From Candidatus Lutacidiplasma silvani (GTDB lineage: Archaea; Thermoplasmatota; Thermoplasmata; Lutacidiplasmatales; UBA184), in NCBI GenBank assembly GCA_022750295.1, contig JAKIVZ010000003.1, forward strand, positions 51,616 to 115,615: a DNA stretch of 64,000 bases, read 5' to 3'. Both the position numbers and the translations under genes were made by a program. Shown piece after piece: positions 11,501-31,077 of this stretch. Every line of letters begins with the position of its first letter. The stretch's first letter is position 1. The notes under the pieces were generated by a model. The model had not been told where the DNA came from and did no database searches. It saw only the letters and a program-made list of their open reading frames with translations.

Positions 11501-11503
11501 CGC

Positions 11504-13150: not shown

Positions 13151-13210
13151 CGCGCACGATAGACGCTTCGTTGGTTCGGCGGGGTCGGAGGCCGGGGTCC
13201 GGTCACGGTC

Positions 13211-14011
13211 CTACGGTTCCCGTAACGTCGCGAGGAGAACGTCCCGGATCGCCGTCGCGCGGCGTTCGTCCTCGAAGTACGTTCGCTGGATCGACGACCA
13301 CCGGGAGGTGGTGGTTGTCCATGGCCGGCCGTAGTCGACGTCCCAAAGGACCAGGGGTTCGGGCTCGGCGAGGCCGACCGTCAGCCGCCGCTCGCCGGCG
13401 AGGGCGGATCGGAACGTCGCTTCGGCGAGGTCCCCCGCGGCGACCGACCGGACCCCCGCGACGAGCTTGCGGACCATCCCCCAGACGAACGAACGCGCCG
13501 TGACCTCGAGCCGGAAGCCGCGGGATGCCGCGGTGACGTCGAACCGGTCGACGATCCGGATCGCCGGTCGGTCGGACGGGATTCCGCGCCCGAACGACCG
13601 CACGTCGATCCGCCCGACCACGGCCGAGGCCGCGGACCGGTACTCCGCGAGGGTCCCGACCGGTTCGACCTCGGCATACCGGTACGTCCGGGAGCGGGCG
13701 GCCCGGGGTCGGAACGATTCATCGACCGCGACGGCCGCGGAGAAGAACACCTCCGGCCGAACCGCGTTCAGCGCGCGGAGCAACGAAGCGGCCGGCCGAG
13801 GCGAGGTGACCGTCACGGCGTTCCCGCGCGCGCTCACCCCGCGGTCGGTTCGGCTGGCGACGTCGATCCGGGCGGCGTCGGCGCTTTCCGCGAGTCGGAA
13901 CCGCTCGATGCCGGCCCGGAGCTCCCCCTCGATCGTGCAGCGCCCCGGCTGCCGGGCCCAGCCGTGGAACGGCCGGCCGTCGTAGCCGAACCGGAGAAGC
14001 CAACGGGTCGT
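13211..14011 (-). CDS. truA: tRNA pseudouridine synthase A; start codon non-canonical or uncertain
   Basis: LRFGYDGRPFHGWARQP, ASRTDRGVSARGN (catalytic D), SRTYRY, SFVWGMVRKLV; the codon at the expected start is ACG (14011-14009). Confidence 0.85.
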   Translation of the reverse strand, partial: TTRWLLRFGYDGRPFHGWARQPGRCTIEGELRAGIERFRLAESADAARIDVASRTDRGVSARGNAVTVTSPRPAASLLRALNAVRPEVFFSAAVAVDESFRPRAARSRTYRYAEVEPVGTLAEYRSAASAVVGRIDVRSFGRGIPSDRPAIRIVDRFDVTAASRGFRLEVTARSFVWGMVRKLVAGVRSVAAGDLAEATFRSALAGERRLTVGLAEPEPLVLWDVDYGRPWTTTTSRWSSIQRTYFEDERRATAIRDVLLATLREP

Positions 14012-14706: not shown

Positions 14707-16248
14707 TTATCGTTCGCCGGAGCCCGGGCCGGCGGTCTGGGTGCCGTCCCGCCAGACCCGCCGGACGCGGCTCGACCCGGCGGAGGCGAGGGTGGGGAGG
14801 TCGGTCCCATGGCACTCAACGAGGTCGGCGACCCCGCCGACCTCGAGCGACCCGAGCCCGGGCCACCCCAGGACCGGTCCGGCGTTCTCCGTGTACATCC
14901 GGAGCGCCGACACGGCGTCGAGGGACTCGGGGGCCCGAGTCGCCCTCGGCGCGACCGCGGCGGCGATCCCCGCCCACGGGTCGAGCGATTCCACCGGCGC
15001 ATCGCTGGAGGCGGCCGGAGCGTGGCCGTGCGCGAGGTACGTCCGAAACGGGTACGTCCAGCGGGCGCGCCGGGGGCCGAGTCGTTCGACGATCCACGCA
15101 TCGCTCGGGACGAACCGCGGTTGGACCACGAGGTGGGGTCGAACCGCGTCGAGTCGCGCGAGAAGGTCCGGCGGGGCGAGGGAGGCGTGCTCGAGGCGGG
15201 GCCGGACCGTCGGCCGGAGCTTCGCGAACACCGCGAGCGTCGTCGCGAGCGCCCGGTCGCCGATCGCGTGGACCGCGAGGCCCGCCCCGAGCCCCTCGGC
15301 CTCGGACGCGATCTCCGTGAGCTCGTCCCGGGAGAGGAGCGGGAACCCGGATTCGTCCGCCCGGTCGCGATACGGCCGGCGGAGCCACGCGGTCCGGGGA
15401 CCGAACGCCCCGTCGCCGACGACCTTCAGACCGGCGAGACGGCTCGACGGGGTCGCCAGACGACGCCGGAGTCGGGGAAACTGGGCCCGCGCGTCGGCCC
15501 GCAGGTAGGCGACCAGCCGGACCGGGGGTCGACGGCGCCCGCGAACGAGACGGCCGAGCTCCTCGACCTCGGACGGGGAGGCGCTCATGGGAGCGAGGGT
15601 CGTCAGTCCCAGGGACGCCGCCCGGGCGAAAAGTTCCGGGAGGCCGAGACGCGAGTGGGCGAACGCCCGGTCGGCCCACGGCCGCAGCGGGCGGAGCGCG
15701 TTGTCGAACAGGAGGCCGTTCGGTCGTCGGTCCGGGGTGCGCCCGATCCGCCCCCCCGGCGGATCGGGCGTGGCCTCCCCGATGCCGACCTCGTCGAGGA
15801 CCGTGGCGCTGACGAGCGCGGCATGCCGACAGGCCCGGGTCAGGACCGTGGGCCGGTCCCCGACCCACCGTTCGACGTCGCGTGCGGTGGGGTAGCGACC
15901 GTCCCGGAGGCGGTCCTGGTCCCACCCGGCCCCGACGACCGGCCCATCGGGGTGGACGACGGCCCACGCGCGAACCCGACGGCCGAGTTCGCCGATCGAC
16001 CGGCTGCCGGTCAGGTCCACGCCCGCGAGGTCGCGCGCGATCTCCAGGACGTGCAGGTGGGCGTCCGTGAGGCCCGGGGTGACGATCCGGCCCCCGAGGT
16101 CGACCCGTTCCGTCCCGGTCGCGACGGACCGACGGACGGTCCGGAGGGCTCCGGCGGCCACCACGCGCCCTTCCTCGGCGGCGACCGCTTCGACGAACCG
16201 GCGGCCGGTGAAGATCCGGCCGTTCGACCAGAGCGTTCCCGCCGACAT
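14707..16248 (-). CDS. Amidohydrolase family 3 (YtcJ-like)
   Basis: VDLGGRIVTPGLTDAHLH, AVHAIGDRA, RLEHAS, SSDAPVE. Confidence 0.9.
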   Translation of the reverse strand: MSAGTLWSNGRIFTGRRFVEAVAAEEGRVVAAGALRTVRRSVATGTERVDLGGRIVTPGLTDAHLHVLEIARDLAGVDLTGSRSIGELGRRVRAWAVVHPDGPVVGAGWDQDRLRDGRYPTARDVERWVGDRPTVLTRACRHAALVSATVLDEVGIGEATPDPPGGRIGRTPDRRPNGLLFDNALRPLRPWADRAFAHSRLGLPELFARAASLGLTTLAPMSASPSEVEELGRLVRGRRRPPVRLVAYLRADARAQFPRLRRRLATPSSRLAGLKVVGDGAFGPRTAWLRRPYRDRADESGFPLLSRDELTEIASEAEGLGAGLAVHAIGDRALATTLAVFAKLRPTVRPRLEHASLAPPDLLARLDAVRPHLVVQPRFVPSDAWIVERLGPRRARWTYPFRTYLAHGHAPAASSDAPVESLDPWAGIAAAVAPRATRAPESLDAVSALRMYTENAGPVLGWPGLGSLEVGGVADLVECHGTDLPTLASAGSSRVRRVWRDGTQTAGPGSGER

Positions 16249-16267
16249 CGATCCCGAGGGGCCGCCT

Positions 16268-18676
16268 CTACGGCTCGGCCGGGGGCGTGCCGGTCGGAGG
16301 AGGCGATTCGGCCGGGGGGACCCCGACCGGGGCCGGACGCTGCCGGTACCGGACGAGGAGCGCCGTCGCCGCGGCGGCCACGATGATGAGGGCGCTCAGG
16401 ACCACCGGGTTGAGGAGGAATCCGGTCAGGAGGGAAACCGAGGGACCGATCGTCAGGTTGAGGGTCCGGGCCGCCGAGCCGCCGGCGCTGTCGTTCCACC
16501 AGGCGATGACGGTGTACGTTCCCGCGGAGGTGTACGAGTGCGTTCCATTGTGCCCGGTTCCGGACGAGCCGTCCCCGTAGGTCCAGACGAAGGACGCACC
16601 GCCGACCCCCCCGGTGGTCGCGGGAACGAACGTGACCGTGGTCCCCGCGGTCGGAAGGGAAGGGGTGGTCGCGACGCCGGTGATCACGGGGGTGGCGGCG
16701 ACGGAGACGTTCAAGGTGCCCGGGGCGGTGAACCCTCCGGCGTCGGCGACGGTCACCGAGACCGTTCGGACCACCGGCCCGGTGGTGAAGCTGTGGATGG
16801 GACCCGGACCGAACCCGGAGTCTCCGTCGCCGAATTGCCAGGTGAAGTTGTCCGGTGCGGTCCCGCCAACGACGTTCGCGAGCAGCGTCGTCGAGACGCC
16901 CGCGTCGGCGACGGCCCGACCCCCGACCGAGAACTCCGGGACAATCGTCACGGTCGGGTCCGGGGCGACGGTGACGTTCGTAACCGCCGAGCCGTGGAGG
17001 CCGAGCGCGTCGACGAGACTCGCGGTCACCGTGACGTTCCCGGGTAGGGAGAATGTGCGCGCAACGGAGGCGCCGTACTCGACCGAACCACTCCCGAACG
17101 ACCACGTGACATTGTACGGCGTCGTTCCCGTCCCCTCGACGGGGGCGGCGGTGAACACGTCCCGGACCCCGACGTCGACTCCGGGGTAGCTCACGGTGAT
17201 CGTGGCGGACGGGCCGCCGTGGACGAACAGCTGCAGGGAGTGGATGTTCGCCGACCCGTTCGGGTCGGTGAGGCCGATCGTGGCGTTGTAGACCCCGGCG
17301 GCCGCGAAGACGTGGACGCCATTCCCTGACGAGGCGACGTCCGACGTGCCATCGCCCCACAGGAACCGGAACGTCGGGTCGACCGACGCGACGGCGCTGG
17401 CGTTCAGGTACACCGACCGCCCCACTTCCTGGGGCGCGGGAGCGACTGCGACGTTGAGGTCCGGGAGGGCCGCGTAGACGAACGTCGCGTTCGTGGGCGC
17501 CCCGGAACCGGTCGCGCCCCCGAGCGAGATCGGGTCGGCCCCCGAGGTGTTCGAGGGAACGGCGGCCCCGACGAGCCCGGGCCCCGACCCGAAGAGAGGG
17601 CCGGTCCAGTTGCACGAGGACCCGGATCCCGAGCAGACGAGGGCGAACGTCGAGGTCGAGGGGACGCCGCCCGGCGTCGCCGATCCCCCGCTGAGGAGCA
17701 GCTCCTGGCGGGCGGGATCCCACGTGAGGGATCCGAGCGCGCGGGCCGGGGGCGCGACGCCTCCGATCGAAGCGGTGGCGTTCGACCATCCGCTCGCATT
17801 GTAGAGCCAAGTGTCCGATTGGGTGCAGTCGCTGCGCCCGCACTCGCCGGTGCCGCCGAACAGGACGTTCGCCCGGAGCACTGGGTCGTACGCCATCGCG
17901 GCGCCAAACCGCGCGGAGGGTCCGGAGATGTTCAGCGCGGCCCAAGTAGAGAGGTTCGCATCGAACTCCCAGCTCTCCCCCTCGAAGGTCGTGCAACTGG
18001 GGGTGGAAACGCACCCCCCGAAGAGAAGGGAGACGTTGGCCGCCGGGTCGTACGCGAGGCTCCCGTGGCTGAGCGCGGGCACGCAGTCGGAGGGGCCCCG
18101 GTCGCACTGGCTCGTGCTGTTGTGCCATCCGTCCGTACGGAACACCCAGGTATCGTTCCCGAGGACGTCGGAGCCCCCCGGTCCGGGTTCGGCGCCGCCG
18201 AACACGAGGACCGACCCGTTGGCGCTCTCCGGAGGGGTGGGCTCGAAGAACTCGCTCATCGCACCGGCCCGGGGCGGGGGAGCGAGCGATAGACCCGCGG
18301 AATCGTTCCGCCACGTGCCGTTTTGGAGAAGCCACGTCCCGTTCCCTGTGCAGCCAGCGTCCTGGCAGCCGCCGAACCAGACGAACTCCTGCAGGTTCCC
18401 GTCGTCCACCATGACGGCCCCGACGGCGGCCGGGGGAAGGTTGCCGAACTGCTCCGGAGTAACGTTCTGCCAGTCGATGGCCGCTGCGGCCGGCACCTGC
18501 CGAGGGGCGACCCCGGCACGGCACGCGTCGCACGGCACACCGGTAGTCAACGCGGCCGGCCCCGGAGCTCCGGTCCCCAGGCTCCCGAGTCCAAATGGAA
18601 GGGCAAGCAGAATCGCAAGGAGGACGACCGCCCAGCGACGGAGCGGCGTCGATCGAACCAGGTGGGCGGCGGCCAT
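16268..18676 (-). CDS. Secreted kelch-repeat + PKD-domain surface glycoprotein, C-terminal TM
   Basis: Signal peptide; FGG/DTW kelch repeats; WGDG/WQFGDG/WTYGDG PKD motifs; TM anchor. Confidence 0.85.
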   Translation of the reverse strand: MAAAHLVRSTPLRRWAVVLLAILLALPFGLGSLGTGAPGPAALTTGVPCDACRAGVAPRQVPAAAAIDWQNVTPEQFGNLPPAAVGAVMVDDGNLQEFVWFGGCQDAGCTGNGTWLLQNGTWRNDSAGLSLAPPPRAGAMSEFFEPTPPESANGSVLVFGGAEPGPGGSDVLGNDTWVFRTDGWHNSTSQCDRGPSDCVPALSHGSLAYDPAANVSLLFGGCVSTPSCTTFEGESWEFDANLSTWAALNISGPSARFGAAMAYDPVLRANVLFGGTGECGRSDCTQSDTWLYNASGWSNATASIGGVAPPARALGSLTWDPARQELLLSGGSATPGGVPSTSTFALVCSGSGSSCNWTGPLFGSGPGLVGAAVPSNTSGADPISLGGATGSGAPTNATFVYAALPDLNVAVAPAPQEVGRSVYLNASAVASVDPTFRFLWGDGTSDVASSGNGVHVFAAAGVYNATIGLTDPNGSANIHSLQLFVHGGPSATITVSYPGVDVGVRDVFTAAPVEGTGTTPYNVTWSFGSGSVEYGASVARTFSLPGNVTVTASLVDALGLHGSAVTNVTVAPDPTVTIVPEFSVGGRAVADAGVSTTLLANVVGGTAPDNFTWQFGDGDSGFGPGPIHSFTTGPVVRTVSVTVADAGGFTAPGTLNVSVAATPVITGVATTPSLPTAGTTVTFVPATTGGVGGASFVWTYGDGSSGTGHNGTHSYTSAGTYTVIAWWNDSAGGSAARTLNLTIGPSVSLLTGFLLNPVVLSALIIVAAAATALLVRYRQRPAPVGVPPAESPPPTGTPPAEP

Positions 18677-21747: not shown

Positions 21748-21832
21748 GCGGGGATCGCCCAGCTTGGTCAAAGGCGCCAGATTCAGGGTCTGGTCTCGTA
21801 GGAGTTCGTGGGTTCAAATCCCTCTCCCCGCA
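21748..21832 (+). tRNA. tRNA-Leu (anticodon CAG)
   Basis: GCGGGGA/TCCCCGC acceptor, anticodon arm CCAGA-TTCAGGG-TCTGG, long variable arm, GGTTCAAATCC T-loop. Confidence 0.95.
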
Positions 21833-22714
21833 GTTTCCTATTATTAATATGTGCTGTTTTGGCCGGCTGGTGAAATCTGCAGGGCAAGCGGACCATCGGA
21901 ACACCTGCTGCGCTGGGGTGCGAGTGAATGGATTTAGAGGTCCGGGCGCGGCATTGGTCAGCAGAACGTTTCAGGGATTCCGGACCCTCGTGAGAGACCC
22001 GACACATTCTACTGCCGACGGTTCGGCAACGAGCCGTCGTACCGGGTGCTAGGCGAGGCACGGGCGATCCCCATCATCCGCGCTCCGACGACCCGACTCC
22101 GCTACGGCGGAGCGGCGCTGTTCCCGTAGCACCGGTGGCTGATCCGGAAGCTCGAGGATGCGGTCGAGGGTCGGCCCGATGCCTCGGGGTTCGTCGTCCA
22201 CGAGGGGGCGTTGCGGTCGGCCACCGTTCTCGAGCTGTTGCGGGGAGCGAACGTCCGAAGACTCGTGGTCATCCTCGAGATCGATCGACGGTGGAAATTC
22301 CCCTGGCGACTGCGAGCCGTGGGGATCAACCCATCGTGACGTCAGAGTCTCGATGGCCAAGCACTCGAACCGCCGTGACGTGCCAACTCTCGATCGCCTC
22401 GTAGACCGTGTCTGATGAACCGCAGCGGCCGAGTCTGGGTCGGCGGGGACAACTCGATCGCCATCGGGCTCGACGGCACAGTTTGCGAGGGGACGGGGAG
22501 AATTCGACCGATCCCACTCAACGCTGGGCTCCTGCTCGACGTGCTTAGTTGCAAGAGCCGAGAATGAGAAGCGCGCATCCGGCGCCCACCGTCGGCGTAT
22601 CTCCGTTGGGTCGTTGACCGCGGCGAACGGAGCGACCTCCCCGACCGCCGCCCCCGTGCTTCAGGGCCACGGGGCGCGTCGTTTTACGGGGAATCGACAT
22701 TTGGCGGCGAGTCC

Positions 22715-25700
22715 GTGCTCCGGCCGCGGCGGTCTCCGTTAGGGTTGCTTCTGGTCCTCGGCGTGCTCGTCGCGTCGCCCGCTGGTCTTCTTGCAGGCCA
22801 CGCTCCCCCGGCGGGTTCGTCTGAAGCCCGAACACTGACCGGAAGCGAACGCTCCACCGGGCCCTTCACCGCTTCGGCGGCGCAGCTCAGTTCGTCGCCG
22901 ACGCTTCCTACAGCCGAGAACGCTTCGAACACGCTCGTCGGCGGGACCGCCTGGTACGGGGATCGACCGACACTGCCGTCTGCGAGTCCCTCCTTCTTCG
23001 CCTCGTCCGCGTCGATTCAGGCGGCCGTGTACGACGCGGCGAACCAGGCGCTCTACTTCTCCGGCCTTCGGACCGACGAGGTCGGTGTGCTGAACGCCAC
23101 GACCCTCGCCCCTATCGCGATGATTTCGGGCTCGGGAGGGGTGGCGATGGCGCTGGATGCCTCCGCGCAGCGCCTTTTCGTCGCGGGATATTGGAACGAC
23201 ACCCTAGCCGTGATCAACTGCACCGATAATCGGTTGGTGGCGACCGTGACACTCCCATCGAACCCGGAGTTCGTCGCCCTCGGCCCTCACGACCGGACAG
23301 CGTACGTGCCGAACGGCGACGGTGTCTCGTTCGTCAACACGTCGACCCTCCAACTAGAATCGACCCTGCAAGCCTCCGGGTTCGGACTCCTGACCGGCGC
23401 CGCCTTCGACCCGCGAGACGGCCTCCTCTACGTCTCGAACACGTCGGACGGGGTCACGCCGATTAACGTGACCACCGACACGTGGGCTGGCGGAAACACC
23501 ACGATCGTGGGTCAGGGACAGTTCGGCAGCCTTTGGTTCGACCCTCTGAGCGGCTCGCTCTACCTGACGGACAACCTCTCCAGTACGATGTGGATCGTCA
23601 ACGTGAGCGCGGGGGGGAACATCACCAGCCTCCCGATAGGGGGCGAAGGCCTGGCAGGGCTCGCCTGGGACCCTGCGACCCGTACGGTGTTCTTGCCGCA
23701 GATGTTCGGAACGAGCGTGCTCCTACTCAACGCGTCCACTGGCGCGGAGGACGCTCGCTCGGTCCCCGTGGGCGTGGGCTCGTCCGTGGCGGTCTTCGAC
23801 CCCTCCCGCCGACAGATGGCGGTGTTCAACGACGCGACCCCCAACCTGACCCTCATCAACCCATCCAACCTCACCGTGACCGCGACCTTCGACCTGAGCC
23901 CGCAGTTCGGCGACGGAGTCGCGGTGCCGGGTTCGTCCTGGCTCGTACTGGCCGACCCGAGCGGAAACGCGCTATACGCGTACAACCGCTCCGATGGACA
24001 GTTCCTTCCGGCCCCCATCCCGGTCGGGGACAATCCCCGCCAGCTGGTCTACGACCCGGCGAGCAATGAGGTGTTCTCGGCGAGCGCGTCGGATGGGACT
24101 GTCTCCGGAACGTTCGTCGGAAACTGGACTCCGGGCGGCCCTCCGACCCGTGTCGGAGCGGACCCCGACGGACTCGCCCTCGGCCCGAATGGAACCATCG
24201 TGGCGGTCAGTTGCCTGTCCGGCACCCTCGAGGGACTTGCCCGCAACGGCGCTCCGCTGCCGAACGCCCCCGTCGACCTCGGCGGATGTCCGGTCGCGGT
24301 CGCCGCGGACCCGGCCGCGGCGACGGCCTACGTCGCGAACGCCGGTGACGACTCCGTGTCAATCGTCAATCTGTCGACGTACCGGACGGTCGGAACGCCG
24401 TGGGCTCTTCCCGGCCAGCCCTCGACCCTCGGGTACGACCCCTCGACCGGCGACTTGTTCGTCGGGTACGCTGATCGGGGGAACCTCACCATCCTAAGCC
24501 CGACGGGAGTGGTCCTCGCGACCCTCCGGTTCCCCTCGTACGAATCGACCCAGTCGTTCTCCTTCGACCCGCTGACGGGGCTGGTCTACGTCACGAACGA
24601 CAGTGGGATCGCGGTCTTCCAGAACTTGACCGAAGTGGCGGGGGTCCCGATCCGGGGGTCGCTCGCCCAGAACGCCACGAGGTACCGAGTGATTCCGGGG
24701 ACCTCGGGTTCCCCGGCGTACGTCACGAGCGGCCTTTCGGGAATCGAGTTCCTCTCGGACGCGCCCGAGCTCGCGCCGTTGCAGGTCGAACCCTCGACCA
24801 CCCTCGCTGGGCGGACGGTTCTCGTCACGACCGCCCCGCTGGGTCCTGAGACGGCGCTCCGGTACACGTACTTGGGACTACCCCCGGGCTGCCGGTCCGC
24901 CGACCTCCCGGCATTGTCGTGCCGGCCGTCGACCAGCGGCACCTTCTCGATTTCTGTCAACGCGTCCGACGCATTCGGCAACTGGGTGCGGAGCTCGACG
25001 CAGCTGACCGTTGCCGCCGCCAACCTTTCGGGGGTGGCTATCGCGGTATCCCCGCCGGTCGTCGATGTCGGCCAGACAGTGACGCTCGCGTCGACAGTGA
25101 AGGGAGAGGGTCCCAATGAGAGCTTCGCCTATGCGGGCCTCCCTTCGGGCTGCGGCACTGCGAACGCGAGTTCCTTCGAGTGTCGACCGAGCGCGCCGGG
25201 CACGTCGCTCATAACCGTCTCCGTCCGGGACGCGTTCGGTGAGCAGGCGAACGGGAGCAGTGTACTCGAGGTCTACCCGCCACCGGGGATCCAGGGGTTC
25301 GGCGCGTTCCCACCAACGACTTCAGTGGGCGGAACGGTAGAGTTCCTTCTCGCGGTGACCGGCGGCGCGCCTGGTACGCCGCGCCTCTCGGTGACCGGCC
25401 TTCCCCCCGGGTGCGCCCCACCTTCCGGCGAGCTGTGGAGCTGCGAGCCAGTCGAGGCCGGAACATTCCGGGTGTCGGCGACGGTCGAGGATTCGACCGG
25501 GACGAACGCGACCGCGGAAACGACGCTCACGGTCGGAGCGTCTGCCGCAGCTCTCCCGCCTCCCGCGATCCTGAGTGCGTTCGCCGCGCCAGACGACATC
25601 CCCGTCGGGGGAACCGTTACGATTGCGGTGGTCGCGCAGGGCGGGGCGACTCCCTTGCATTACTCATATGCGGGACTTCCCCCGGGTTGTGTCTCCACGA

Positions 25701-25987
25701 ACTCCAGCGTCCTCTCATGCCATCCCGCGGCCAGCGGCACGTTCACCGTGAACGCGACGGTCTCGGACAGCTTAGGGCGCTCTGCATCCGCGCTCGTGTC
25801 CCTGGTCGTCACGCCCTTGGCGGCGACCCCGGCCCCCGGCACGACAGGCAGCCCGGCATTCTCTCTCGCCGAACTCGGCGTTGTGGCAATCGCTGCCGGG
25901 GGCTTCGCTGGCGCAACCGCGGCGGCCATCGTTGTCGCATTGGTGCGGAGGGCCAAGGATAGTCCAAGGCATAGGTCGGATCCGTAA
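22715..25987 (+). CDS. Large secreted YncE/YVTN beta-propeller protein with Cys-containing Ig-like repeats and C-terminal TM
   Basis: Signal peptide; IPVGDNPRQLVYDP, AYVANAGDDSVSIVN; four GLP(P/S)GC...C.P...GT repeats; TM anchor. Confidence 0.85.
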   Translation: MLRPRRSPLGLLLVLGVLVASPAGLLAGHAPPAGSSEARTLTGSERSTGPFTASAAQLSSSPTLPTAENASNTLVGGTAWYGDRPTLPSASPSFFASSASIQAAVYDAANQALYFSGLRTDEVGVLNATTLAPIAMISGSGGVAMALDASAQRLFVAGYWNDTLAVINCTDNRLVATVTLPSNPEFVALGPHDRTAYVPNGDGVSFVNTSTLQLESTLQASGFGLLTGAAFDPRDGLLYVSNTSDGVTPINVTTDTWAGGNTTIVGQGQFGSLWFDPLSGSLYLTDNLSSTMWIVNVSAGGNITSLPIGGEGLAGLAWDPATRTVFLPQMFGTSVLLLNASTGAEDARSVPVGVGSSVAVFDPSRRQMAVFNDATPNLTLINPSNLTVTATFDLSPQFGDGVAVPGSSWLVLADPSGNALYAYNRSDGQFLPAPIPVGDNPRQLVYDPASNEVFSASASDGTVSGTFVGNWTPGGPPTRVGADPDGLALGPNGTIVAVSCLSGTLEGLARNGAPLPNAPVDLGGCPVAVAADPAAATAYVANAGDDSVSIVNLSTYRTVGTPWALPGQPSTLGYDPSTGDLFVGYADRGNLTILSPTGVVLATLRFPSYESTQSFSFDPLTGLVYVTNDSGIAVFQNLTEVAGVPIRGSLAQNATRYRVIPGTSGSPAYVTSGLSGIEFLSDAPELAPLQVEPSTTLAGRTVLVTTAPLGPETALRYTYLGLPPGCRSADLPALSCRPSTSGTFSISVNASDAFGNWVRSSTQLTVAAANLSGVAIAVSPPVVDVGQTVTLASTVKGEGPNESFAYAGLPSGCGTANASSFECRPSAPGTSLITVSVRDAFGEQANGSSVLEVYPPPGIQGFGAFPPTTSVGGTVEFLLAVTGGAPGTPRLSVTGLPPGCAPPSGELWSCEPVEAGTFRVSATVEDSTGTNATAETTLTVGASAAALPPPAILSAFAAPDDIPVGGTVTIAVVAQGGATPLHYSYAGLPPGCVSTNSSVLSCHPAASGTFTVNATVSDSLGRSASALVSLVVTPLAATPAPGTTGSPAFSLAELGVVAIAAGGFAGATAAAIVVALVRRAKDSPRHRSDP

Positions 25988-26016
25988 GGGACCTACCTGT
26001 CCCACGCGTCCTACGC

Positions 26017-26070
26017 GGGATTTGAACCGCCGGGCGGTTCAAATCCCTCTCCCCGCAGTTTCCTATTATT
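26017..26070 (+). repeat. att-like site 2: 31-bp palindrome plus tRNA-Leu 3' duplication
   Basis: GGGATTTGAACCGCC-G-GGCGGTTCAAATCCC (26017-26047); 26036-26070 is identical to 21811-21845 (35 bp). Confidence 0.92.
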
Positions 26071-26189
26071 TCTCGATGTTCCTATCGGAGAATCCTGAAC
26101 CGAGCTCGCCGCCGCGGCCACCAAGCGCGCCGCTCGCTCCGTTCATGCACATAGCAAGCTATATGGGTGCCATAGACGATGCTTCCGCC

Positions 26190-26426
26190 ATGATCACGAC
26201 CATCCAGCTAACCCCGCAGACCCGCTCCCGCCTCGCCGAACTGAAGCAGAGTCCTCGGGAGTCCTACGACGAAGTCCTCACCAAGCTTCTCTCGCTTGTC
26301 CCCGAAGGGGATGAGGAAGGGGCATACTCCCAGCCTTTCCGCGTCGCCCTCCTTCGCTCTCGACTGGAGATTCGCGAGGGTCGGACACTCTCCCACGCTC
26401 GGCTCAAGCGACGGCTGGGCCTCTGA
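26190..26426 (+). CDS. Putative antitoxin (archaeal RHH-like, RelB partner)
   Basis: MITTIQL...RLAELK..PRESYDEVLTKLL...EIREGRTLSHARLKRRLGL; directly upstream of RelE. Confidence 0.8.
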   Translation: MITTIQLTPQTRSRLAELKQSPRESYDEVLTKLLSLVPEGDEEGAYSQPFRVALLRSRLEIREGRTLSHARLKRRLGL

Positions 26427-26677
26427 GGGCCTGGTCCATCGTCTGGTCGGAGACAGCGGCGCGAGACCTCTCGGGTCTCGACCTCCCGGTCGCAAGACGC
26501 GTGGTCCGAAAGCTCGAACAAGCCGCCTCGGATCCCGAGCGGTACTTCGAACGACTGGTCGCTTCCGAGGATTGGAAGCTACGGATGGGGGATTATCGGC
26601 TCTTGGCGCTGCTCAGTCCTTCGTCTCGCACGATCCTTGTAGAGCGAGTCGACCACCGATCCCGCGTGTACCGGTAA
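26423..26677 (+). CDS. relE: RelE/ParE family toxin with lost or non-canonical start codon (not in ORF track)
   Basis: Manual translation: AWSIVWSETAARDLSGLDLPVARRVVRKLEQAASDPERYFERLVASEDWKLRMGDYRLLALL...VDHRSRVYR*; begins CTG AGG GCC overlapping the antitoxin TGA. Confidence 0.8.
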   Translation: MRAWSIVWSETAARDLSGLDLPVARRVVRKLEQAASDPERYFERLVASEDWKLRMGDYRLLALLSPSSRTILVERVDHRSRVYR

Positions 26678-26733
26678 CCGGCAGCCCAACCCCGGGTCGG
26701 AGCACGAAAGCTCCGAGCCCTCGAGTCTGGTTC

Positions 26734-26787
26734 GGGATTCAACCCGCCGAGCGGTTCGAATCCCTCGCCCCGCAGTCTCCTAGTATT
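26734..26787 (+). repeat. att-like site 3 (diverged palindrome plus tRNA-Leu 3' copy)
   Basis: GGGATTCAACCCGCC-G-AGCGGTTCGAATCCC followed by TCGCCCCGCAGTCTCCTAGTATT. Confidence 0.85.
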
Positions 26788-26931
26788 AACAGTAATGCCT
26801 TACCCCGAACGGTGGACTTTCAAGGTGCAGACGTCCCTGGTTGAATCTCGGGATCCCAGCCTCGTCCGTTGTCTCGGGAGAGCAAGCGGGACGCAAGTCG
26901 TAAGGCCCACCACCGATTGGCCCCCCTGCCG

Positions 26932-27672
26932 ATGCGCCAAGTTCGCGGGAAAGGCCCGGTTGGCATCGCCGGAGTTTCGCTCTTAGTCGTGACCATGTTG
27001 CTTCCCGCCAGTGCTTCGGCGAATTCGGGTGCCGGGCCCTCCCTCCACCCCCCGTTCTCGGGCACATGGAGTCGAACGATCTCTGGCGGCGCGGTTGGAT
27101 GCGGAACCGGTTCCATTCACGACGGCGCCCACTCCTTCAATGCCACGGCCGGGGCGGCTCACCTCCTTTCTCGGTCGTTCGGCTCAAATCGTGGCTGCCC
27201 CGGCCTGCCCGCCTACACCACGGTAAACGGTTCGACCTTGATCGAGTTCGTTGCAAGTCCGATTCGTTTGGCCGCAGGGCTTCACGACGTAGTCGCGCGT
27301 TGGTCCATCGCTTGGACCGAGGAAGTGAACGAAACTATCCGCTCGGTAGGCAATCCTCCCTCGGCCTGCGTCGTGCTGACTCTAACGACGTATCTCCGGA
27401 GTCCCAATGGGACGAACTACAGCAACTACTACAACGAGTGGGGGCCCGGGGCCGTATGCTTGAACCTCGGGAACGCGACACTCTCAGGGCACAGCAGGTT
27501 TGCCCTCTCGAACAACATCACTCTCCCGAGCGCAGGGCGATACTCGTTCGTCGCAGATTTTACCGCATGGACGGGTGTCTACGTTGACGGATTCGGGAAT
27601 ACCGCGTCGGCTACCTGCAACATTGGGACTGATGGGAACTACGCGAAGCTTCTCTCAGTCCGAATTTCCTAG
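26932..27672 (+). CDS. Secreted hypothetical protein (Cys pairs, N-glycosylation sequons)
   Basis: Signal peptide (GIAGVSLLVVTMLLPASASA); lower-GC codon usage. Confidence 0.7.
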   Translation: MRQVRGKGPVGIAGVSLLVVTMLLPASASANSGAGPSLHPPFSGTWSRTISGGAVGCGTGSIHDGAHSFNATAGAAHLLSRSFGSNRGCPGLPAYTTVNGSTLIEFVASPIRLAAGLHDVVARWSIAWTEEVNETIRSVGNPPSACVVLTLTTYLRSPNGTNYSNYYNEWGPGAVCLNLGNATLSGHSRFALSNNITLPSAGRYSFVADFTAWTGVYVDGFGNTASATCNIGTDGNYAKLLSVRIS

Positions 27673-28171
27673 CCAATCCACGGTATGGCCGTTGGCCCCG
27701 GAACCTGAGATTCCGTGCAATCGGGTCCCGACGCCACGGCGCCTATCTTGGGACCGGTTCTGATAGACACGGTCGCATTGGTCAGGCCCAAATCCCTAAA
27801 TGAACGCAGCCCGTGGAAACGCGTGGTTCACGGGACCGTTCCGTTCTACTTGCCGGGAGGAATGAGTCGCGGCTGTTCGATTGGAACCGCCGGTCGGCTG
27901 ACTCTGAACCCCCCCGACCGATCGAACCACTCGAACGCCTCGACCGATTCGCTCGGGAACTGGGCTGGCAGGTCTCCGAAACCCGGCCCGCCCGAAGCGG
28001 TCAGCAATTCTTCTGCACCGGCACTGACGAAACACCTTGCCGCCGAGTCTCCCAGAATATCCGACCTCCCTGGAGCGGACAGATTGCAGGGTCGACTTCC
28101 GCGTCGATCAGCCCATCACGGGCCTATGTGCTACGTATAGTCTCATATAGCATCGAGCGGCTCTAGGATCC

Positions 28172-28363
28172 GTGGCCGCGACGACAATCCAGCTTGATTC
28201 GTCCACCCGGGAACAGCTCAAGGCGGTCGGGCGGAAGGGGGAGACGTACGACCAGATCGTGCGTCGCCTCCTCGAGGCCGCCGAGTACTCCGACTTCATG
28301 GACGAGCAATACCGGATTCTCCACGAGGAGAAACACTGGGTTCGCCTCCGAGCTCCGGCGTGA
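28172..28363 (+). CDS. Putative antitoxin (archaeal RHH-like)
   Basis: ATTIQLDSSTREQLKAVGRKGETYDQIVRRLLE; GTGA overlap with RelE. Confidence 0.8.
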   Translation: MAATTIQLDSSTREQLKAVGRKGETYDQIVRRLLEAAEYSDFMDEQYRILHEEKHWVRLRAPA

Positions 28364-28623
28364 TTCGCGCTATTCTCCTGTCGGATTCGGCGAACCGGGA
28401 GTACTCGCGACTTCCGACCAAGGTGCGGGAGCGAATCCACGCCGCGCTCCAGGAACTGGCGGGATCGGAGCGAGGGGACGTCAAGCGGTTGAAGGGAACT
28501 CGGGGACGGGAGGACCTCTTCCGACTCCGGGTCGGGGACTATCGAGTCCTCTTCGCGCGCTCGCGCGGCGAGATTAGAGTGACTCGAATCCTGCATCGAA
28601 GTGAGGGGTACGACTGGCTATGA
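28360..28623 (+). CDS. relE: RelE/ParE family toxin
   Basis: DVKRLKG...LFRLRVGDYRVLF...IRVTRILHRSEGYD. Confidence 0.9.
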   Translation: MIRAILLSDSANREYSRLPTKVRERIHAALQELAGSERGDVKRLKGTRGREDLFRLRVGDYRVLFARSRGEIRVTRILHRSEGYDWL

Positions 28624-28666
28624 TTGGAGTGGATTCGCTGGTGAAGCGTCAGGTCGTAGAGGGTCA

Positions 28667-28704
28667 GATTTGAACCGCCCGGCGGTTCAAATCCCTCTCC
28701 CCGC
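28667..28704 (+). repeat. att-like site 4 (distal end of array)
   Basis: GATTTGAACCGCC-C-GGCGGTTCAAATC (perfect 13-bp arms) followed by CCTCTCCCCGC. Confidence 0.9.
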
Positions 28705-29124
28705 GTGAACCTCGATTCTCCTGGTTTCTGAATGAGGGGGACTACATTCGAGGTCACGTTCGGTTCGGAGTGGGGTCGGGTCCCTGACGTAAGGATTTCC
28801 GAGCGCCTCCGTGAAGCGTCGTCGAGGATCCGGGACCTGCGGCCTCGCCGAACGGGTTCCCGCTCTTGGAAGGGAGTGCGATTCCTTGAGAATCTCAGCC
28901 GAGTGCTCCGCCATGCCGCCGGATTGCTCGAGGTCGACCCACGGGGGTCGGTCGAAATGACCTCCCCCGGCCGGATGGGCTGAGTTCGCGGGAGGTGACG
29001 TCGGCCGACGGTCAGGACCCGCGAGGGCGGTTCGGCGGAGTGCATTCAATTTGACGAAGGGCTTTACCCCCCGTCATGGTGCGACCCTTCGAGGGCCGCT
29101 CGGCGGCCCTCAGAAGGGAGAACC

Positions 29125-29868
29125 ATGGGATTTGTACCGTTCGTGGACGACTTGGGCCTCATTGTCGCATTGATTTTGGCGGCGGCCGCGGTGTTCACGT
29201 ACACCTCGCTCCGCGTGTTCCTGGCGATCTACCGGAACGATTCCAGGGGAGTACGGGCCATCTTGAAGGCATCGGCGATCCCGACCGGGATCCTGGGCGG
29301 CGTTTCGTTGCTCCTCGGACTCTTCATCGAGTTCACCTGGCCGTTCCTCCTCTCGGACGGACTCGGGGCCTACGACATTTTCTTCGGGGACGTCGTGATG
29401 CTGTTCGCGATGGTCCTGATCGTGTACGCGATCGTCGCGTACCTGGGACTCCGGCTCGAGTATGCGGGGCTCTTCGCCCTGGTCGCCGGGATCACGACGG
29501 CGTGGTACGGGTACTGGGGGTACACGACCCTGGTCAGCCCGGGAACGCTCGGCCTGACCAAGGACCCCCTGGAGACGTTCCTGCTCTACGGAGCGTTCGC
29601 GGCGGCCGGTTTCTTCGCCTTCCCGGCGACGTTGGCCGTCGACTGGTTCCTCGCGCACCCCGGCCCCCGCTGGACCCCGTTCAGTTTCGCGCTGCGGCCC
29701 GTCACGGAGGAGAGCGAAGTTCCGACCCCCGGCACCGGACCGTACCGGGTACCGGCCTCGTTCTACCTCGTGGCCGTGTGGTTCCCGATCTTCGTCTTCC
29801 TGGCGTTCGTAGCGGCGTGGTTCTACATGGGAGCGATCCTTCCGGCCCATCTCACCAGCCCGCCCTGA
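29125..29868 (+). CDS. DUF981 family membrane protein
   Basis: FVDDLGL, FTWPF....GAYDIFFGD, multiple TM helices, C-terminal PAHL. Confidence 0.7.
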   Translation: MGFVPFVDDLGLIVALILAAAAVFTYTSLRVFLAIYRNDSRGVRAILKASAIPTGILGGVSLLLGLFIEFTWPFLLSDGLGAYDIFFGDVVMLFAMVLIVYAIVAYLGLRLEYAGLFALVAGITTAWYGYWGYTTLVSPGTLGLTKDPLETFLLYGAFAAAGFFAFPATLAVDWFLAHPGPRWTPFSFALRPVTEESEVPTPGTGPYRVPASFYLVAVWFPIFVFLAFVAAWFYMGAILPAHLTSPP

Positions 29869-29988: not shown

Positions 29989-31077
29989 CTAGTGTGCTGT
30001 ACCAGCCAGACCTAAGCTTATCCGGCTCCGGGTGACTTTGACGAGGATCTCGTCGGCGGTCGCCCGCCATTGGAACGGTCGAGGGACCTCGTTGTACCGC
30101 TCGATGTAGAGCTTCAACGTCTCGATCAGTTCCCGCTCGCTGTGGAACGTTCCTCGTCGGATCTGGCGGTGGGTCAGGTCGTGGAACCACCGCTCGACCT
30201 GGTTCAGCCACGACGACCCCGTCGGGACGAAATGGAAGTGGAAGCGGGGGTGACGCAGGACCCACCGTTTCACTTCCGGGGTCTTGTGCGTCGACAGATT
30301 GTCGAGCACGAGGTGGAGGTCGAGTTCGGGCGGAGTGTTCCGGTCGAGGGTCCGAAGGAAGGCGAGGAACTCCCTCACTCGATGCCGTTTGTGGCACTCG
30401 CCGATGATTCGCCCCTCGACGACGTCAAGGGCGGCGAACAGGTCGCTGGTGCCGTTCCGTCGATAGTCGTGGGTCTGCCGCTCGGGAACCCCGGGACGGA
30501 GGGAAAGGATCGCGGGAGTTCGGTCGAGCGCCTGGATCTGGGTCTTCTCGTCGACGCTGAGCACGAGCGCGTGCTCAGGGGGGTTGAGGTAGAGGCCCAC
30601 CACGTCGCGCAACTTCTCCTCGAACAGGTGGTCGGTGCTGAGCTTGTAGTGCTCGAGTCGATGCGGCTGAAGTCGACGGGCTTTCCAGATCCGGGCCACC
30701 GTGTCCGGGCTGACTCCGTGCCGGGCCGCCATCAGGCGAACCGACCACTGGGTGGCATTGTGCGGTTTGGTGCGGAGGGTGTCGTGAACGATGGCCCGGA
30801 TCTTCGAGTCGGGGAGGGTGGAGGGGCCCCCGGGTCGAGGGGCATCCTGCTCGATGCCGGCGAGGCGGAGACGACGGAATCGACCCCTCCAAAGGGCACT
30901 GGTGCTGCGTTGAGTGTTCAGCTCGGTCGCGATCTGCTTGTCCTGAAGTCCGTCGGCGGCGCGGAGGACAATCTTGGCCCGGAGGACGATGCGAAAGGGA
31001 GTGGATCGACCCCGGGCCCACGACTCCAGCTGGCGTCGTTCGTTGGGAGCGAGAGAGACCGGCGCGGCGACCCGCAC
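29989..31077 (-). CDS. IS630 transposase
   Basis: SVDEKTQIQALDR, HDYRRNGT, LVLDNLSTHK, SWLNQVERWF (DDE); stop codon lies in the target duplication; TTTTATA box about 25 nt upstream. Confidence 0.95.
   Translation of the reverse strand: MRVAAPVSLAPNERRQLESWARGRSTPFRIVLRAKIVLRAADGLQDKQIATELNTQRSTSALWRGRFRRLRLAGIEQDAPRPGGPSTLPDSKIRAIVHDTLRTKPHNATQWSVRLMAARHGVSPDTVARIWKARRLQPHRLEHYKLSTDHLFEEKLRDVVGLYLNPPEHALVLSVDEKTQIQALDRTPAILSLRPGVPERQTHDYRRNGTSDLFAALDVVEGRIIGECHKRHRVREFLAFLRTLDRNTPPELDLHLVLDNLSTHKTPEVKRWVLRHPRFHFHFVPTGSSWLNQVERWFHDLTHRQIRRGTFHSERELIETLKLYIERYNEVPRPFQWRATADEILVKVTRSRISLGLAGTAH

Follow-up and report, generated by a model that had tools for sequence, protein, structure and literature searches.

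Introduction

Bacterial integrons and elements that exploit host Xer recombinases collect accessory genes without mobility machinery for each gene. The attC sites of integrons are imperfect palindromes of roughly 57-141 bp with inverse-core and core heptamers. Elements of the IMEX type have no recombinase of their own, use host Xer recombinases at dif, and stack in tandem at one chromosomal site (e.g., the CTX/TLC arrays of Vibrio cholerae), and some carry a folded palindromic attP. At tRNA genes, islands, plasmids, and viruses are integrated by tyrosine integrases, and the available parts of two sources describe such cases, including tandem arrays, in archaea (PMC8371274) and Thaumarchaeota (PMC6563490). 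The smallest cryptic element in the accessible portion of the Thaumarchaeota survey measures 2.6 kb and still encodes an integrase (PMC6563490). The available text on streptococcal CIMEs describes them as mobile if a related integrase is present (PMC5704250). For archaeal integrons and CALINs, the corresponding text reports no integrase on the same contig in most cases, and the words 'tRNA' and 'Thermoplasma' are absent from the main text in its available form (PMC9668308), as is the term IMEX from the accessible part of the review of archaeal tyrosine recombinases (PMC8371274). Archaeal integrated elements have been catalogued almost wholly via their integrases, an approach that by its nature would overlook cassettes without one. 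The locus described here is best read as three (perhaps four) att-bounded cassettes arrayed in tandem at the 3' end of a tRNA-Leu(CAG) gene, without a recombinase of its own.

Anatomy of the Array

The window is the whole 64,000-nucleotide stretch of DNA that was analyzed; its genome (G000), from an uncultured soil archaeon, is a 2.10-Mb assembly of 29 contigs and a Thermoplasmata MAG, as the first-pass annotation had supposed. The boundaries and sites of the array are as follows:

21748-21832, + strand: tRNA-Leu(CAG), the intact target gene and left (attL-like) array boundary (ARAGORN; Rfam tRNA, 44.5 bits)
21832-21845, + strand: first tail copy, the P'-side sequence opening unit 1 (tail match)
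26017-26056, + strand: site 2, a perfect 15+1+15 palindrome (26017-26047) overlapping a core copy (26036-26056)
26734-26773, + strand: site 3, a diverged palindrome (26734-26764) and a core with two mismatches (26753-26773)
27878-27916, + strand: possible decayed fifth site, with one mismatch in the left arm (27879-27891) and a degenerate right side
28667-28704, + strand: site 4, the right (attR-like) boundary, a perfect 13+1+13 palindrome (28667-28693) and an exact core (28684-28704)

The 21-base core corresponds to the last 21 bases of tRNA-Leu(CAG) (21811-21831 within the gene). It is found without mismatch at 21811, 26036, and 28684 and with two mismatches at 26753, giving four matches in the window versus 0.01 expected, a number reached by none of 100 shuffles. 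The core-to-core distances are 4225, 717, and 1931 bp. The three downstream cores each follow an inverted T-arm copy, a 13-mer that is exact at 26019-26031 and 28667-28679 and carries three mismatches at 26736-26748. At the three-mismatch level this 13-mer is common in the window (22 matches versus 16.2 expected), so the evidential weight of the arms lies in the two exact copies and in their placement immediately before the cores. The palindromes that the arms form with the cores are 27-31 bp long across the array sites. A shared 14-base tail occurs in the window only at 21832, 26057, and 26774 (three matches versus 0.01 expected), following the tRNA and the two inner sites, and site 4 passes into the chromosomal flank without a tail. 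The first-pass annotation had described these repeats, unit lengths, inverted copies (diverged in site 3), and tails from the letters alone, and each was recovered by measurement; the asymmetry of arm and tail that it had pointed out takes the form B-core-P', P-core-P', P-core-B', which fits tandem site-specific integration.

Folding of single-stranded DNA predicts hairpins on the two strands of -16.5 and -17.0 kcal/mol at site 2 (z -4.7 and -4.6) and -15.9 and -16.3 kcal/mol at site 4 (z -5.4 and -5.3), and weaker ones at site 3 (-9.9 and -12.5 kcal/mol; z -1.7 and -2.3). The candidate fifth site aligns to site 2 with a local score of 35.0, compared with a null maximum of 34.0 from as many as 2000 90-mers placed at random in the window (starts within the array region were skipped), and no stable hairpin is predicted there (z -1.6). 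The alignment hints weakly at a site that would divide unit 3 into a secreted-protein unit and a toxin-antitoxin unit of ~0.8 kb.

Across the whole assembly the palindrome is confined to this locus. Elsewhere, the core is found in five places with two to four mismatches, mostly at tRNA-like 3' ends, and the tail gives a single two-mismatch match on another contig. No Rfam family matched the array sites.

Cargo of the Units

The units and their genes, which agree gene by gene with the cargo named in the first-pass annotation, are:

21833-26035, + strand: unit 1, 4225 bp core to core; the first ~880 bp hold no recognizable gene and are followed by the surface-protein gene
22715-25987, + strand: surface protein with a signal peptide, YncE-like beta-propeller repeats, PKD/Ig-like domains, and a C-terminal membrane anchor
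26057-26752, + strand: unit 2, 717 bp core to core, opening with the tail (26057-26070) and holding one toxin-antitoxin pair
26190-26426, + strand: DUF7557 protein, putative antitoxin of unit 2 (Pfam PF24434, 7.2e-09, 35.4 bits versus a cut-off of 25)
26423-26677, + strand: ParE/RelE-type putative toxin of unit 2 (Pfam PF05016, 7.1e-09; PHROG RelE-like, 6e-13)
26774-28683, + strand: unit 3, 1931 bp core to core, opening with a tail variant (26774-26787); perhaps two units
26932-27672, + strand: secreted protein, its N-terminal signal peptide read from the translation
28172-28363, + strand: DUF7557 protein, putative antitoxin of the second pair (Pfam, 8.5e-09)
28360-28623, + strand: ParE/RelE-type putative toxin of the second pair (Pfam, 8.1e-08)

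The surface protein matches Pfam PKD (3e-10) and YNCE (7e-05) as well as NCBIfam propeller repeats, and the secreted protein has no match in Pfam, NCBIfam, or PHROGs. With PF05016 scores of 36.6 and 33.2 bits for the toxins (cut-off 23), DUF7557 scores of 35.4 and 35.1 bits for the antitoxins (cut-off 25), and a four-base overlap between antitoxin and toxin genes in each case, both pairs have the predicted features of type II toxin-antitoxin systems of the ParE/RelE superfamily. The toxin gene of unit 2 has no ATG, GTG, or TTG where its start is expected. The two antitoxins are 36% identical over 39 residues and the two toxins 35% identical, values so low that local duplication is not the origin of the pairs.

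The units are compact, each site in the window lying 30-57 bp beyond the preceding stop codon. The GC content is 0.59-0.64 over 26000-28750 versus 0.69-0.76 over 15000-18500 and 0.70 genome-wide, a foreign composition. A PHROGs scan of the array returned RelE-like matches only, and searches with PF00589, Pfam, and PHROGs found no recombinase gene within 21811-28704 and no integrase or viral remnants in the units, contrary to the decayed large proviruses by which the first-pass annotation said its reading would be refuted.

Recurrence in Related Thermoplasmata

At least 15 congeneric Thermoplasmata genomes have palindrome-plus-core sites in the same stretch downstream of tRNA-Leu(CAG), and their arrays range from one to eight or more units with sizes of 716 to 12103 bp (e.g., at least eight sites across about 23 kb in G153). 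All of the genomes are MAGs, with completeness of 53-100%. In 356,743 bases from 22 loci, 54 palindromes were counted when up to four mismatches were allowed, and none in the reversed sequences. Of 150 genomes of the genus, 53 contain a general form of the palindrome (the backward control gave no matches), and in a class-wide sample it was found in three of 201 genomes, all of the same family, and in none of the 177 outside it. In two genomes (G007 and G162), a tRNA-Arg(CCT) gene is followed by the same site design with that tRNA's own acceptor sequence. The anatomy thus recurs with different cargo at tRNA-Leu(CAG) and tRNA-Arg(CCT) in the same family, and a recombinase in cis is absent.

Cargo in the relatives includes toxin-antitoxin pairs, ion pumps and metal uptake systems (Kdp, Znu), a methylase paired with an HNH-domain protein, and surface proteins. 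The 30 cargo proteins scanned contained no integrase, replication, or virus genes and are ordinary cellular-type accessory genes. Two generalizations of the first-pass annotation hold for the window and fail beyond it. All cargo in G000 lies on the + strand, and toxin-antitoxin pairs in G023, G126, and G162 are on the opposite strand, so that co-orientation is not a rule; the 717-bp unit of G000 is small, and in relatives many units reach the size of operons (as much as 6.5-12 kb). Several sites are degenerate. Covariation between the arms of Leu-type sites is weak (88.7% of cells paired versus 87.1% in shuffles), and for one variable arm pair the fully complementary combination was found once.

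Sharing and Turnover of Cassettes

Unit 2 is matched in four other species (G130, G064, G162, and G128) at 83-86% identity with boundaries at the sites, over all 696 bases in G130 and G162, 668 in G064, and 623 in G128. The homologue is first in the array in these four genomes and second in G000. The flanking core genes are 80-91% identical to those of the relatives, close to the value for unit 2, which may have been inherited vertically. A homologue of unit 1 adjoins the tRNA in G023, with a surface protein 84% identical to that of the window, and the first cassette of G141 corresponds to an internal cassette of G138 (89.5% identity over 875 bp). In G070 the surface protein of the first cassette is only 28% identical to that of G000, yet the flanking proteins are 88-89% identical, and G070 and G064 hold different cassettes, with 90.7% identity across 4.5 kb of their downstream flanks. 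Content and order differ among relatives, contrary to the uniform arrangement by which the first-pass annotation said its reading would be refuted, and cassettes turn over between equally related genomes. None of the cassettes common to the sampled species exceeds 91% identity, which gives no sign of recent horizontal movement. Much of the variation in the clade of G000 could have been produced by deletions from a larger ancestral array.

Variation was also seen in a soil metagenome. A contig of run X2 (151 bases, depth 2, no mismatches) joins 21810 to 26036 and thereby skips unit 1 exactly, and the same run holds pieces of unit 1 at 99.5-100% identity. The skip could equally have been produced by recombination between the 35-bp repeats or represent an ancestral state that preceded unit 1. 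Independent metagenome contigs span the junctions between units 2 and 3 and between unit 3 and the flank. Neither junction of unit 1 was seen among the contigs of three metagenome runs, and no circular or excised cassette was seen among metagenome contigs.

Search for a Recombinase

A loose PF00589 search of the whole genome gave one candidate, located on another contig, in agreement with the first-pass annotation that the array itself encodes none. This gene is a XerA equivalog (234.8 bits versus a cut-off of 220) and falls below the cut-offs of the integron-integrase models (TIGR02249, 148.6 versus 265; NF011946, 88.1 versus 435). A XerA-like gene is the sole tyrosine recombinase in G000, G118, G080, G122, and G042, and PF00239 is also absent from the last four. 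None of 20 palindrome-bearing relatives has a PF00589 gene within 20 kb of a site. Chromosomal XerA is the only recombinase present in every sufficiently complete array-bearing genome, and it is a candidate for the trans-acting enzyme of the array. A search for dif found none; the palindrome is missing from 97 of the 150 genus genomes and so is not dif itself.

No autonomous element with a matching att design was found in the 20 relatives, which are incomplete MAGs whose plasmids or viruses may be unbinned. The site design gave no matches in viral contigs and three in metagenome contigs, each the integrase-free arrangement. These searches thus gave no source for the postulated trans-acting enzyme.

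A canonical integron was rejected as the identity of the locus: there is no IntI, the sole PF00589 gene of the genome is XerA, and the 27-31-bp sites are derived from a tRNA and do not fit attC. The core letters of the array sites depart from the attC consensus, and relative to the heptamers the outer letters show one extra base.

Proposed Mechanism and Alternatives

The cassettes probably accreted by site-specific recombination with an enzyme supplied in trans. A cassette site would comprise, on the P side, a GC-centered palindrome with T-arm half-sites, paired in inverted orientation, as its arms; in the middle, the tRNA sequence copied from the T-loop through the 3' end; and, on the P' side, a short tail. 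Conservative site-specific recombination into the tRNA 3' end would restore the gene and shift the displaced 3' end, now behind the palindrome, to the far side, and repeated events would lead to the order tRNA-tail ... palindrome-core-tail ... palindrome-core-flank. New units would enter adjacent to the tRNA, and their small size would result from recombination rather than decay, the enzyme acting in trans. In four relatives (G070, G153, G084, and G128) the T-loop letter of the sites differs from that of the resident tRNA, so the T-loop of the sites would come from the element and the crossover would lie 3' of it.

The main rival holds that each unit is the remnant of a larger plasmid, provirus, or island that entered the tRNA by means of its own tyrosine integrase and afterward lost integrase and backbone, leaving immobile scars that differ by vertical inheritance and deletion. 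The degenerate sites, the lack of circles among metagenome contigs, and a toxin-antitoxin unit about as diverged as its flanks are all compatible with such scars. There are also precedents: in the available parts of the literature, loss of the integrase is presumed for archaeal integrated elements that have none, and tandem integration at one locus is known (PMC8371274), and a bacterial route from integration through decay to a CIME and then accretion is described (PMC5704250). However, integrase loss would be needed independently in every unit of every array (none of the 20 relatives has one within 20 kb), and neither backbone genes nor their pseudogene traces are present, as judged by the single PF00589 candidate elsewhere in G000, the PHROGs scan limited to RelE-like matches, and the 30 cellular-type cargo proteins. 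The compactness of the units in the window and the 717-bp unit that retains its site boundaries in five species argue in the same direction, and we consider decay to be an unlikely origin for the array.

The palindromes could instead mainly serve a function in the DNA or RNA of the tRNA locus (e.g., as terminators, processing signals, or protein-binding sites) and have spread by local duplication or gene conversion, with the repeats of the tRNA end as a by-product. Several cassette-free relatives do carry a half or whole palindrome within a few bases after the tRNA-Leu gene, the hairpins predicted on both strands are strong, and tails are similar within one genome and different between clades. 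Against this, the acceptor strand of the tRNA is always part of the repeats, in direct orientation, and the cargo between them is unrelated, the same logic applies at tRNA-Arg(CCT) with its own acceptor copy, the sites match no Rfam family, and a terminator role leaves the exact skip of unit 1 unexplained; such an origin is highly improbable. An assembly mis-join at short repeats or a simple tandem segmental duplication is more improbable still: the source genome is a MAG, its 35-45-bp repeats could confuse an assembly graph, and none of the three metagenome runs showed either junction of unit 1, but two array junctions (unit 2/unit 3 and unit 3/flank) are crossed by independent contigs, the same architecture appears in many independent assemblies, some of 2-10 contigs, and the units are unrelated in sequence, with toxin-antitoxin pairs 35% identical.

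Beyond accretion in trans, a wider reading is possible, and we advance it tentatively. The family would have its own gene-capture system, in which the fixed entry sites are tRNA genes (Leu-CAG and Arg-CCT at minimum) and cargo-only cassettes with T-arm palindromes are inserted, shuffled, and excised by an off-array XerA working away from dif or by an unrecognized enzyme, making the system an integron analogue of independent archaeal origin. Array content differs between closely related soil archaea, and if the units are mobile they would represent a route of niche adaptation invisible to current surveys. The short, highly conserved site provides a handle for finding the enzyme and for testing whether archaeal XerA acts beyond dif.

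Comparison with Known Systems

Like islands at tRNA genes, the array has a tRNA 3' part as its target and leaves the gene restored, with a displaced direct repeat as its far boundary (in G000, the intact tRNA forms the left border, and its 3' part recurs in direct orientation at the right one), and several elements can be stacked at one tRNA. Unlike islands, the array units have no integrase inside or nearby, reach down to 0.7 kb with cargo only, and are bounded by sites that each have a perfect or near-perfect palindrome from an inverted T-arm copy.

The integrons and CALINs described in the available text, including cases from archaeal MAGs, resemble the array in consisting of cargo-only cassettes that each end in a palindromic site, in the frequency of toxin-antitoxin cassettes, and in content that varies between strains (PMC9668308). 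New units seem to enter at a fixed end in both systems, which is a tRNA gene here and attI beside intI there. The sites also differ, with a 27-31-bp palindrome plus 12 bases of tRNA acceptor here and a 57-141-bp attC there, as does the cargo, which in relatives is of mixed orientation with some units being whole operons.

The CIMEs and accretion arrays of streptococcal ICEs and IMEs are similar to the locus in that att-flanked units devoid of recombination genes are stacked where a target gene ends, and the units here lack transfer genes as well. In the accessible description, CIMEs are decayed ICEs or IMEs found beside related autonomous elements (PMC5704250), whereas no autonomous partner was found here in the 20 relatives or in viral and metagenome contigs. 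The array further differs in its archaeal hosts, its far smaller and more numerous units, and its palindromic sites.

An IMEX at dif was rejected, given that the target is a tRNA gene and the palindrome is missing from 97 of 150 genus genomes; the odd-length center of the palindrome also departs from the 11-6-11 layout given for dif in the available part of the review (PMC8371274). The likeness to IMEX lies in the lack of an own recombinase and in tandem stacking, with XerA the only recombinase common to the array-bearing genomes. Set beside these systems, the locus looks to be a site for collecting genes, of a kind for which no archaeal example has yet been described.

Structure and content of the array

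The array occupies 21811-28704 and consists of three units behind tRNA-Leu(CAG), divided by copies of the last 21 bases of the tRNA (the core), which are exact at 26036 and 28684 and carry two mismatches at 26753. Four core matches occur in the window against 0.01 expected, and none of 100 shuffles reached four. Each of the three downstream copies is directly preceded by an inverted copy of the T-arm, and a shared 14-base tail follows the tRNA and the two inner sites and is absent after the last site (three matches versus 0.01 expected). Three elements of the first-pass annotation, namely the recurrence of the tRNA end, the inverted copy before sites 2-4 with its divergence in site 3, and the uneven distribution of the tail, are thus borne out, and the array is a real observation far beyond chance.

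Features of the array and its units
21748-21832: tRNA-Leu(CAG) (ARAGORN; Rfam tRNA, 44.5 bits)
26017-26047: site 2, perfect palindrome (15+1+15)
26734-26764: site 3, diverged palindrome
28667-28693: site 4, perfect palindrome (13+1+13)
Unit 1: a single large surface protein (signal peptide, propeller repeats, PKD domains, C-terminal anchor)
Unit 2 (717 bp): one DUF7557/ParE pair
Unit 3: a secreted protein without known family and a second DUF7557/ParE pair

The palindrome is confined to this locus in the assembly as a whole (29 contigs, 2.10 Mb, GC 0.70), and the tail has a single further match, with two mismatches, on another contig. The array is poorer in GC than the DNA around it: unit 1 has a GC content of 0.65-0.70 and units 2-3 of 0.59-0.64, versus 0.69-0.76 upstream. 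The predicted folding energy of sites 2 and 4 as single-stranded DNA is about -16 to -17 kcal/mol for both strands (z -4.6 to -5.4), with a weaker predicted hairpin at site 3. A left arm with one mismatch at 27879 is followed by a degenerate right side, a faint resemblance that may mark a decayed site dividing unit 3.

The two DUF7557/ParE pairs are only 35-36% identical to each other and were therefore acquired separately. The ParE gene of unit 2, at 26423-26677 (+), has no ATG, GTG or TTG at its overlap with the antitoxin stop, and the first usual start gives just 58 residues; since the same 58-residue ORF is called in the related genomes G128, G130 and G064, the missing usual start is conserved, and an unusual start codon or coupling to the antitoxin may be involved. 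An IS630-type transposase with DDE_3 and HTH domains, at 29992-31077 (-), lies 1.3 kb past the last site and has a relative (cluster C13) near an array of G007, another congeneric genome. Upstream of the tRNA are genes for a glutamine synthetase, an Lrp/AsnC regulator and a DeoC aldolase; these are the conserved genes there, and an integron-like integrase platform in that position is rejected.

Occurrence in related genomes

Tallies for the genus refer to 150 genomes, in which the unpublished G019, G147 and G148 count in denominators only. A tRNA-type core match (<=3 mismatches) occurs in 148 of the 150, and the strict pattern for core copies outside tRNAs has matches in 26. T-loop-like copies were judged present in 17 relatives, and 18 stretches were taken from these and from G064. 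In 15 relatives (from the 18 stretches together with G023 and G007), tRNA-Leu(CAG) is followed downstream by additional sites on the same stretch; in G041, G043 and G135 the contig stops before any tRNA, and in G064 and G108 the sites are degenerate. All sites share the same left arm and centre, followed by a copy of the T-arm and acceptor, with a mean column identity of 85% in an alignment of 37 distinct sites.

Units of 716-718 bp are found in five genomes, and the remaining units measure 778, 1009, 1076, 1373, 1567, 1665, 2244, 2296, 2704, 2910 and 3679 bp, with larger ones of 4001, 4190, 4225, 4699, 6475, 9211 and 12103 bp; a looser scan divides some of the larger intervals further. At least eight sites are spread across ~23 kb in G153. 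Upstream synteny is kept in 13-15 loci, and the downstream flank is not kept. Proof of an empty site by way of this flank failed: no clean empty site was found, and the gene at 29125-29868 adjoins the array only in the window's genome (G000) and in G162, lying elsewhere in other genomes.

Thirty cargo proteins encoded in relatives' larger units were scanned and comprise KdpABC, a ZnuABC-type uptake system with its repressor, a chloride channel, a HAD ATPase, cyclase-TPR proteins, a dehydrogenase, a phosphatase, regulators, a DNA methylase with an HNH partner and a glyoxalase, the rest being ParE toxins and proteins of no family; integrase, replication and virus proteins were absent from these 30. 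The cassette with the methylase and its MTaX1/HNH partner is that of G135 (11394-13492 of the fetched stretch L050), and it is likely a restriction-modification or defence module carried as cargo. In G068 (stretch L042, oriented), two complete tRNA-Leu(CAG) genes, at 3928-4012 and 13917-14003, lie 9.9 kb apart, with a small toxin-antitoxin unit and 9.2 kb of ordinary genes between them; the pair could reflect a segmental duplication or an element carrying a whole tRNA copy.

Unit boundaries and possible turnover

The comparison of cassette content between relatives, proposed in the first-pass annotation, reveals different cassettes at the same tRNA-Leu(CAG). G070 and G064 have downstream flanks that are 90.7% identical over 4.5 kb, and their cassettes differ. 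The surface-protein unit of G000 is shared with G023 (84% protein identity), and in the equally related G070 the surface protein in the same position is just 28% identical, with flanking proteins at 88-89%. The 717-bp unit of G000 has counterparts at 83-86% identity in G130, G064, G162 and G128, with site-to-site alignments of 696 bases (all) in G130 and G162, 668 in G064 and 623 in G128; it stands first in these four genomes and second in G000. Likewise, the first cassette of G141 is an internal cassette of G138 (89.5% identity, 875 bp). Two results speak against recent horizontal movement: the divergence of the 717-bp unit is close to that of the flanking genes (80-91% identity), and no cassette is common to species representatives at >91% identity.

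Reads came from three soil runs of one study, the only runs in which parts of the stretch are present, in small shares (0.05-0.07); they were placed at 85% likeness, uncovered parts being uninformative. Read mapping, a further check proposed in the first-pass annotation, supported the array in part. One contig (record 17) spans site 3, the junction of units 2 and 3, with one mismatch, and another (record 6) crosses site 4 and reaches the flank, with two mismatches; neither junction of unit 1 is covered in the three runs. A third contig (record 7, from the soil run X2; 151 bases, depth 2, no mismatches) joins 21810 to 26036, running from the tRNA straight into unit 2 and skipping exactly unit 1, and the same run contains pieces of unit 1 at 99.5-100% identity. 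Because its 44 bases of unit 2 match G000 exactly, unlike the G130 version, this contig comes from a G000-like strain. On the basis of this one low-depth contig, unit 1 is present or absent at site boundaries within one population; the join could equally have arisen by recombination between the 35-bp repeats, or represent a locus into which unit 1 had not yet inserted.

Search for a recombinase

No recombinase is encoded in the array, in agreement with the first-pass annotation; the sole PF00589 match of G000 is a XerA equivalog on another contig, PF16795 has no match in that genome, and one serine recombinase lies on a further contig. An SSV-type split integrase is rejected: there is no PF00589 or PF16795 signal across the window, and neither the ~880-bp head of unit 1 (21833-22714) nor the stretch 27709-28166 contains an ORF with a Pfam or PHROG match. 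The head of unit 1 has no counterpart in the homologous unit of G023, apart from the start of the surface-protein gene.

When positions of PF00589 matches and sites were compared in 20 palindrome-bearing relatives, none (0/20) had a match within 20 kb of a site. The nearest match is 24 kb away, beside tRNA-Thr in G126; in G007, a nearly closed genome, >380 kb separate either array from the nearest integrases, and in G162 the nearest is 130 kb from the array at tRNA-Arg. G118, G080, G122 and G042 (84-91% complete), like G000, have only a XerA-like gene as a PF00589 match, and in G120 PF00589 has no match. PF00239 is present in 66 of the 150 genus genomes, and a serine recombinase as an enzyme acting in trans finds no support, this family being missing from the array- or palindrome-bearing G042, G080, G118, G122, G130, G137 and G141. 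Searches for an autonomous element or free circle gave no matches to two patterns among viral contigs and three matches among metagenome contigs, all in chromosomal arrangement.

The palindrome as a lineage motif

A general palindrome pattern (9-base arms, 7-base centre, <=1 mismatch) is found in 53 of the 150 genus genomes, with no match of the backward control in any genome. Sampling across the class gave 3 genomes of 201 with this pattern, all of the same family, and 0 of 177 from other families. The GC-rich inner arms vary between versions and remain complementary, keeping the symmetry. One version accompanies tRNA-Leu and another tRNA-Arg(CCT) in G007 and G162, and further copies bear the end of an untyped tRNA. 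The tRNA-Arg(CCT) sites (L067 7742-11150 in G007; L068 in G162) lie 0.5-4.7 kb downstream, each with a copy of its own species' tRNA-Arg acceptor. Within Leu-type sites, arm covariation is weak (88.7% of cells paired versus 87.1% in shuffles, with many T-G combinations), and covariation as proof of a hairpin is not sustained.

Many cassette tails have a second palindrome directly behind the core or ~40 bases behind it. Several cassette-free relatives have half or whole T-arm palindromes 3-8 bases past tRNA-Leu (L011, L013, L017, L018, L025, L035); these may have been left by lost cassettes or may belong to the entry site in its native form. In G007, a truncated resolvase-domain fragment (C2:1704807-1705351, stretch L073; E 3.3e-8) lies ~0.4 kb from a lone palindrome, the flank of which does not match the nearby tRNA-Gln.

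Proposed mechanism

The asymmetry of arm and tail is the expected outcome of conservative site-specific recombination, a step that rests on the established behaviour of tyrosine integrases at tRNA genes (PMC8371274). Such recombination would leave the tRNA followed by P' (one element-side half of the site), inner sites of P, core and P', and an end site of P, core and chromosomal flank. In G070, G153, G084 and G128 the T-loop letter of the sites differs from that of the resident tRNA, and therefore the T-loop of the site would come from the element, placing the exchange 3' of the T-loop, probably within the acceptor and trailer. The palindrome would then belong to the P arm and, in the simplest case, would serve a recombinase dimer or an accessory protein as a symmetric binding site, with a folded single-strand substrate as a possible alternative.

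Under site-specific recombination, new units would enter beside the tRNA and push older units outward. The position of the 717-bp unit in G000 versus four relatives, the X2 contig and the G141/G138 pair all fit such entry; deletion histories can mimic the same pattern.

Of all recombinases, only XerA is found in every array-bearing genome that is complete enough to judge, and it is a candidate enzyme in trans. According to PMC8371274, XerA proteins of archaea need no partner for recombination in vitro, and that of Pyrococcus shows weak binding to stem-loop att sites. A scan of G000 for dif (short dif-like core, 11-6-11 palindromes) gave no convincing candidate, and the palindrome itself, judged by distribution and geometry, is not dif, since it is missing from 97 of the 150 genomes and has an odd-length centre. 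The enzyme might also come from a visiting plasmid or virus that was not binned; none appeared in the viral or metagenome contigs.

Comparison with known systems

In the literature consulted on archaeal integrases and integrons, thaumarchaeal integrated elements and bacterial CIMEs, no account came to light of cassette arrays that lack an integrase and bear T-arm palindromes at tRNA genes of archaea, and supplements could list such loci. That the arrays are a gene-capture system which arose independently in archaea and is driven by a recombinase of the host or of an unrecognised kind is a tentative proposal that we consider rather doubtful. The initial reading of an integron-like gene-capture system was right in outline, with 'integron' holding as an analogy only: the array differs from an integron in having no IntI and sites that do not fit attC, and cargo, co-oriented in the window as the first-pass annotation has it, is not uniform in orientation across relatives. 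The array likewise does not qualify as an integrase-bearing island nor, its target not being dif, as an IMEX. In its working, the array resembles tRNA-targeted integration with accretion, and in appearance it resembles a CALIN or an array of CIMEs.
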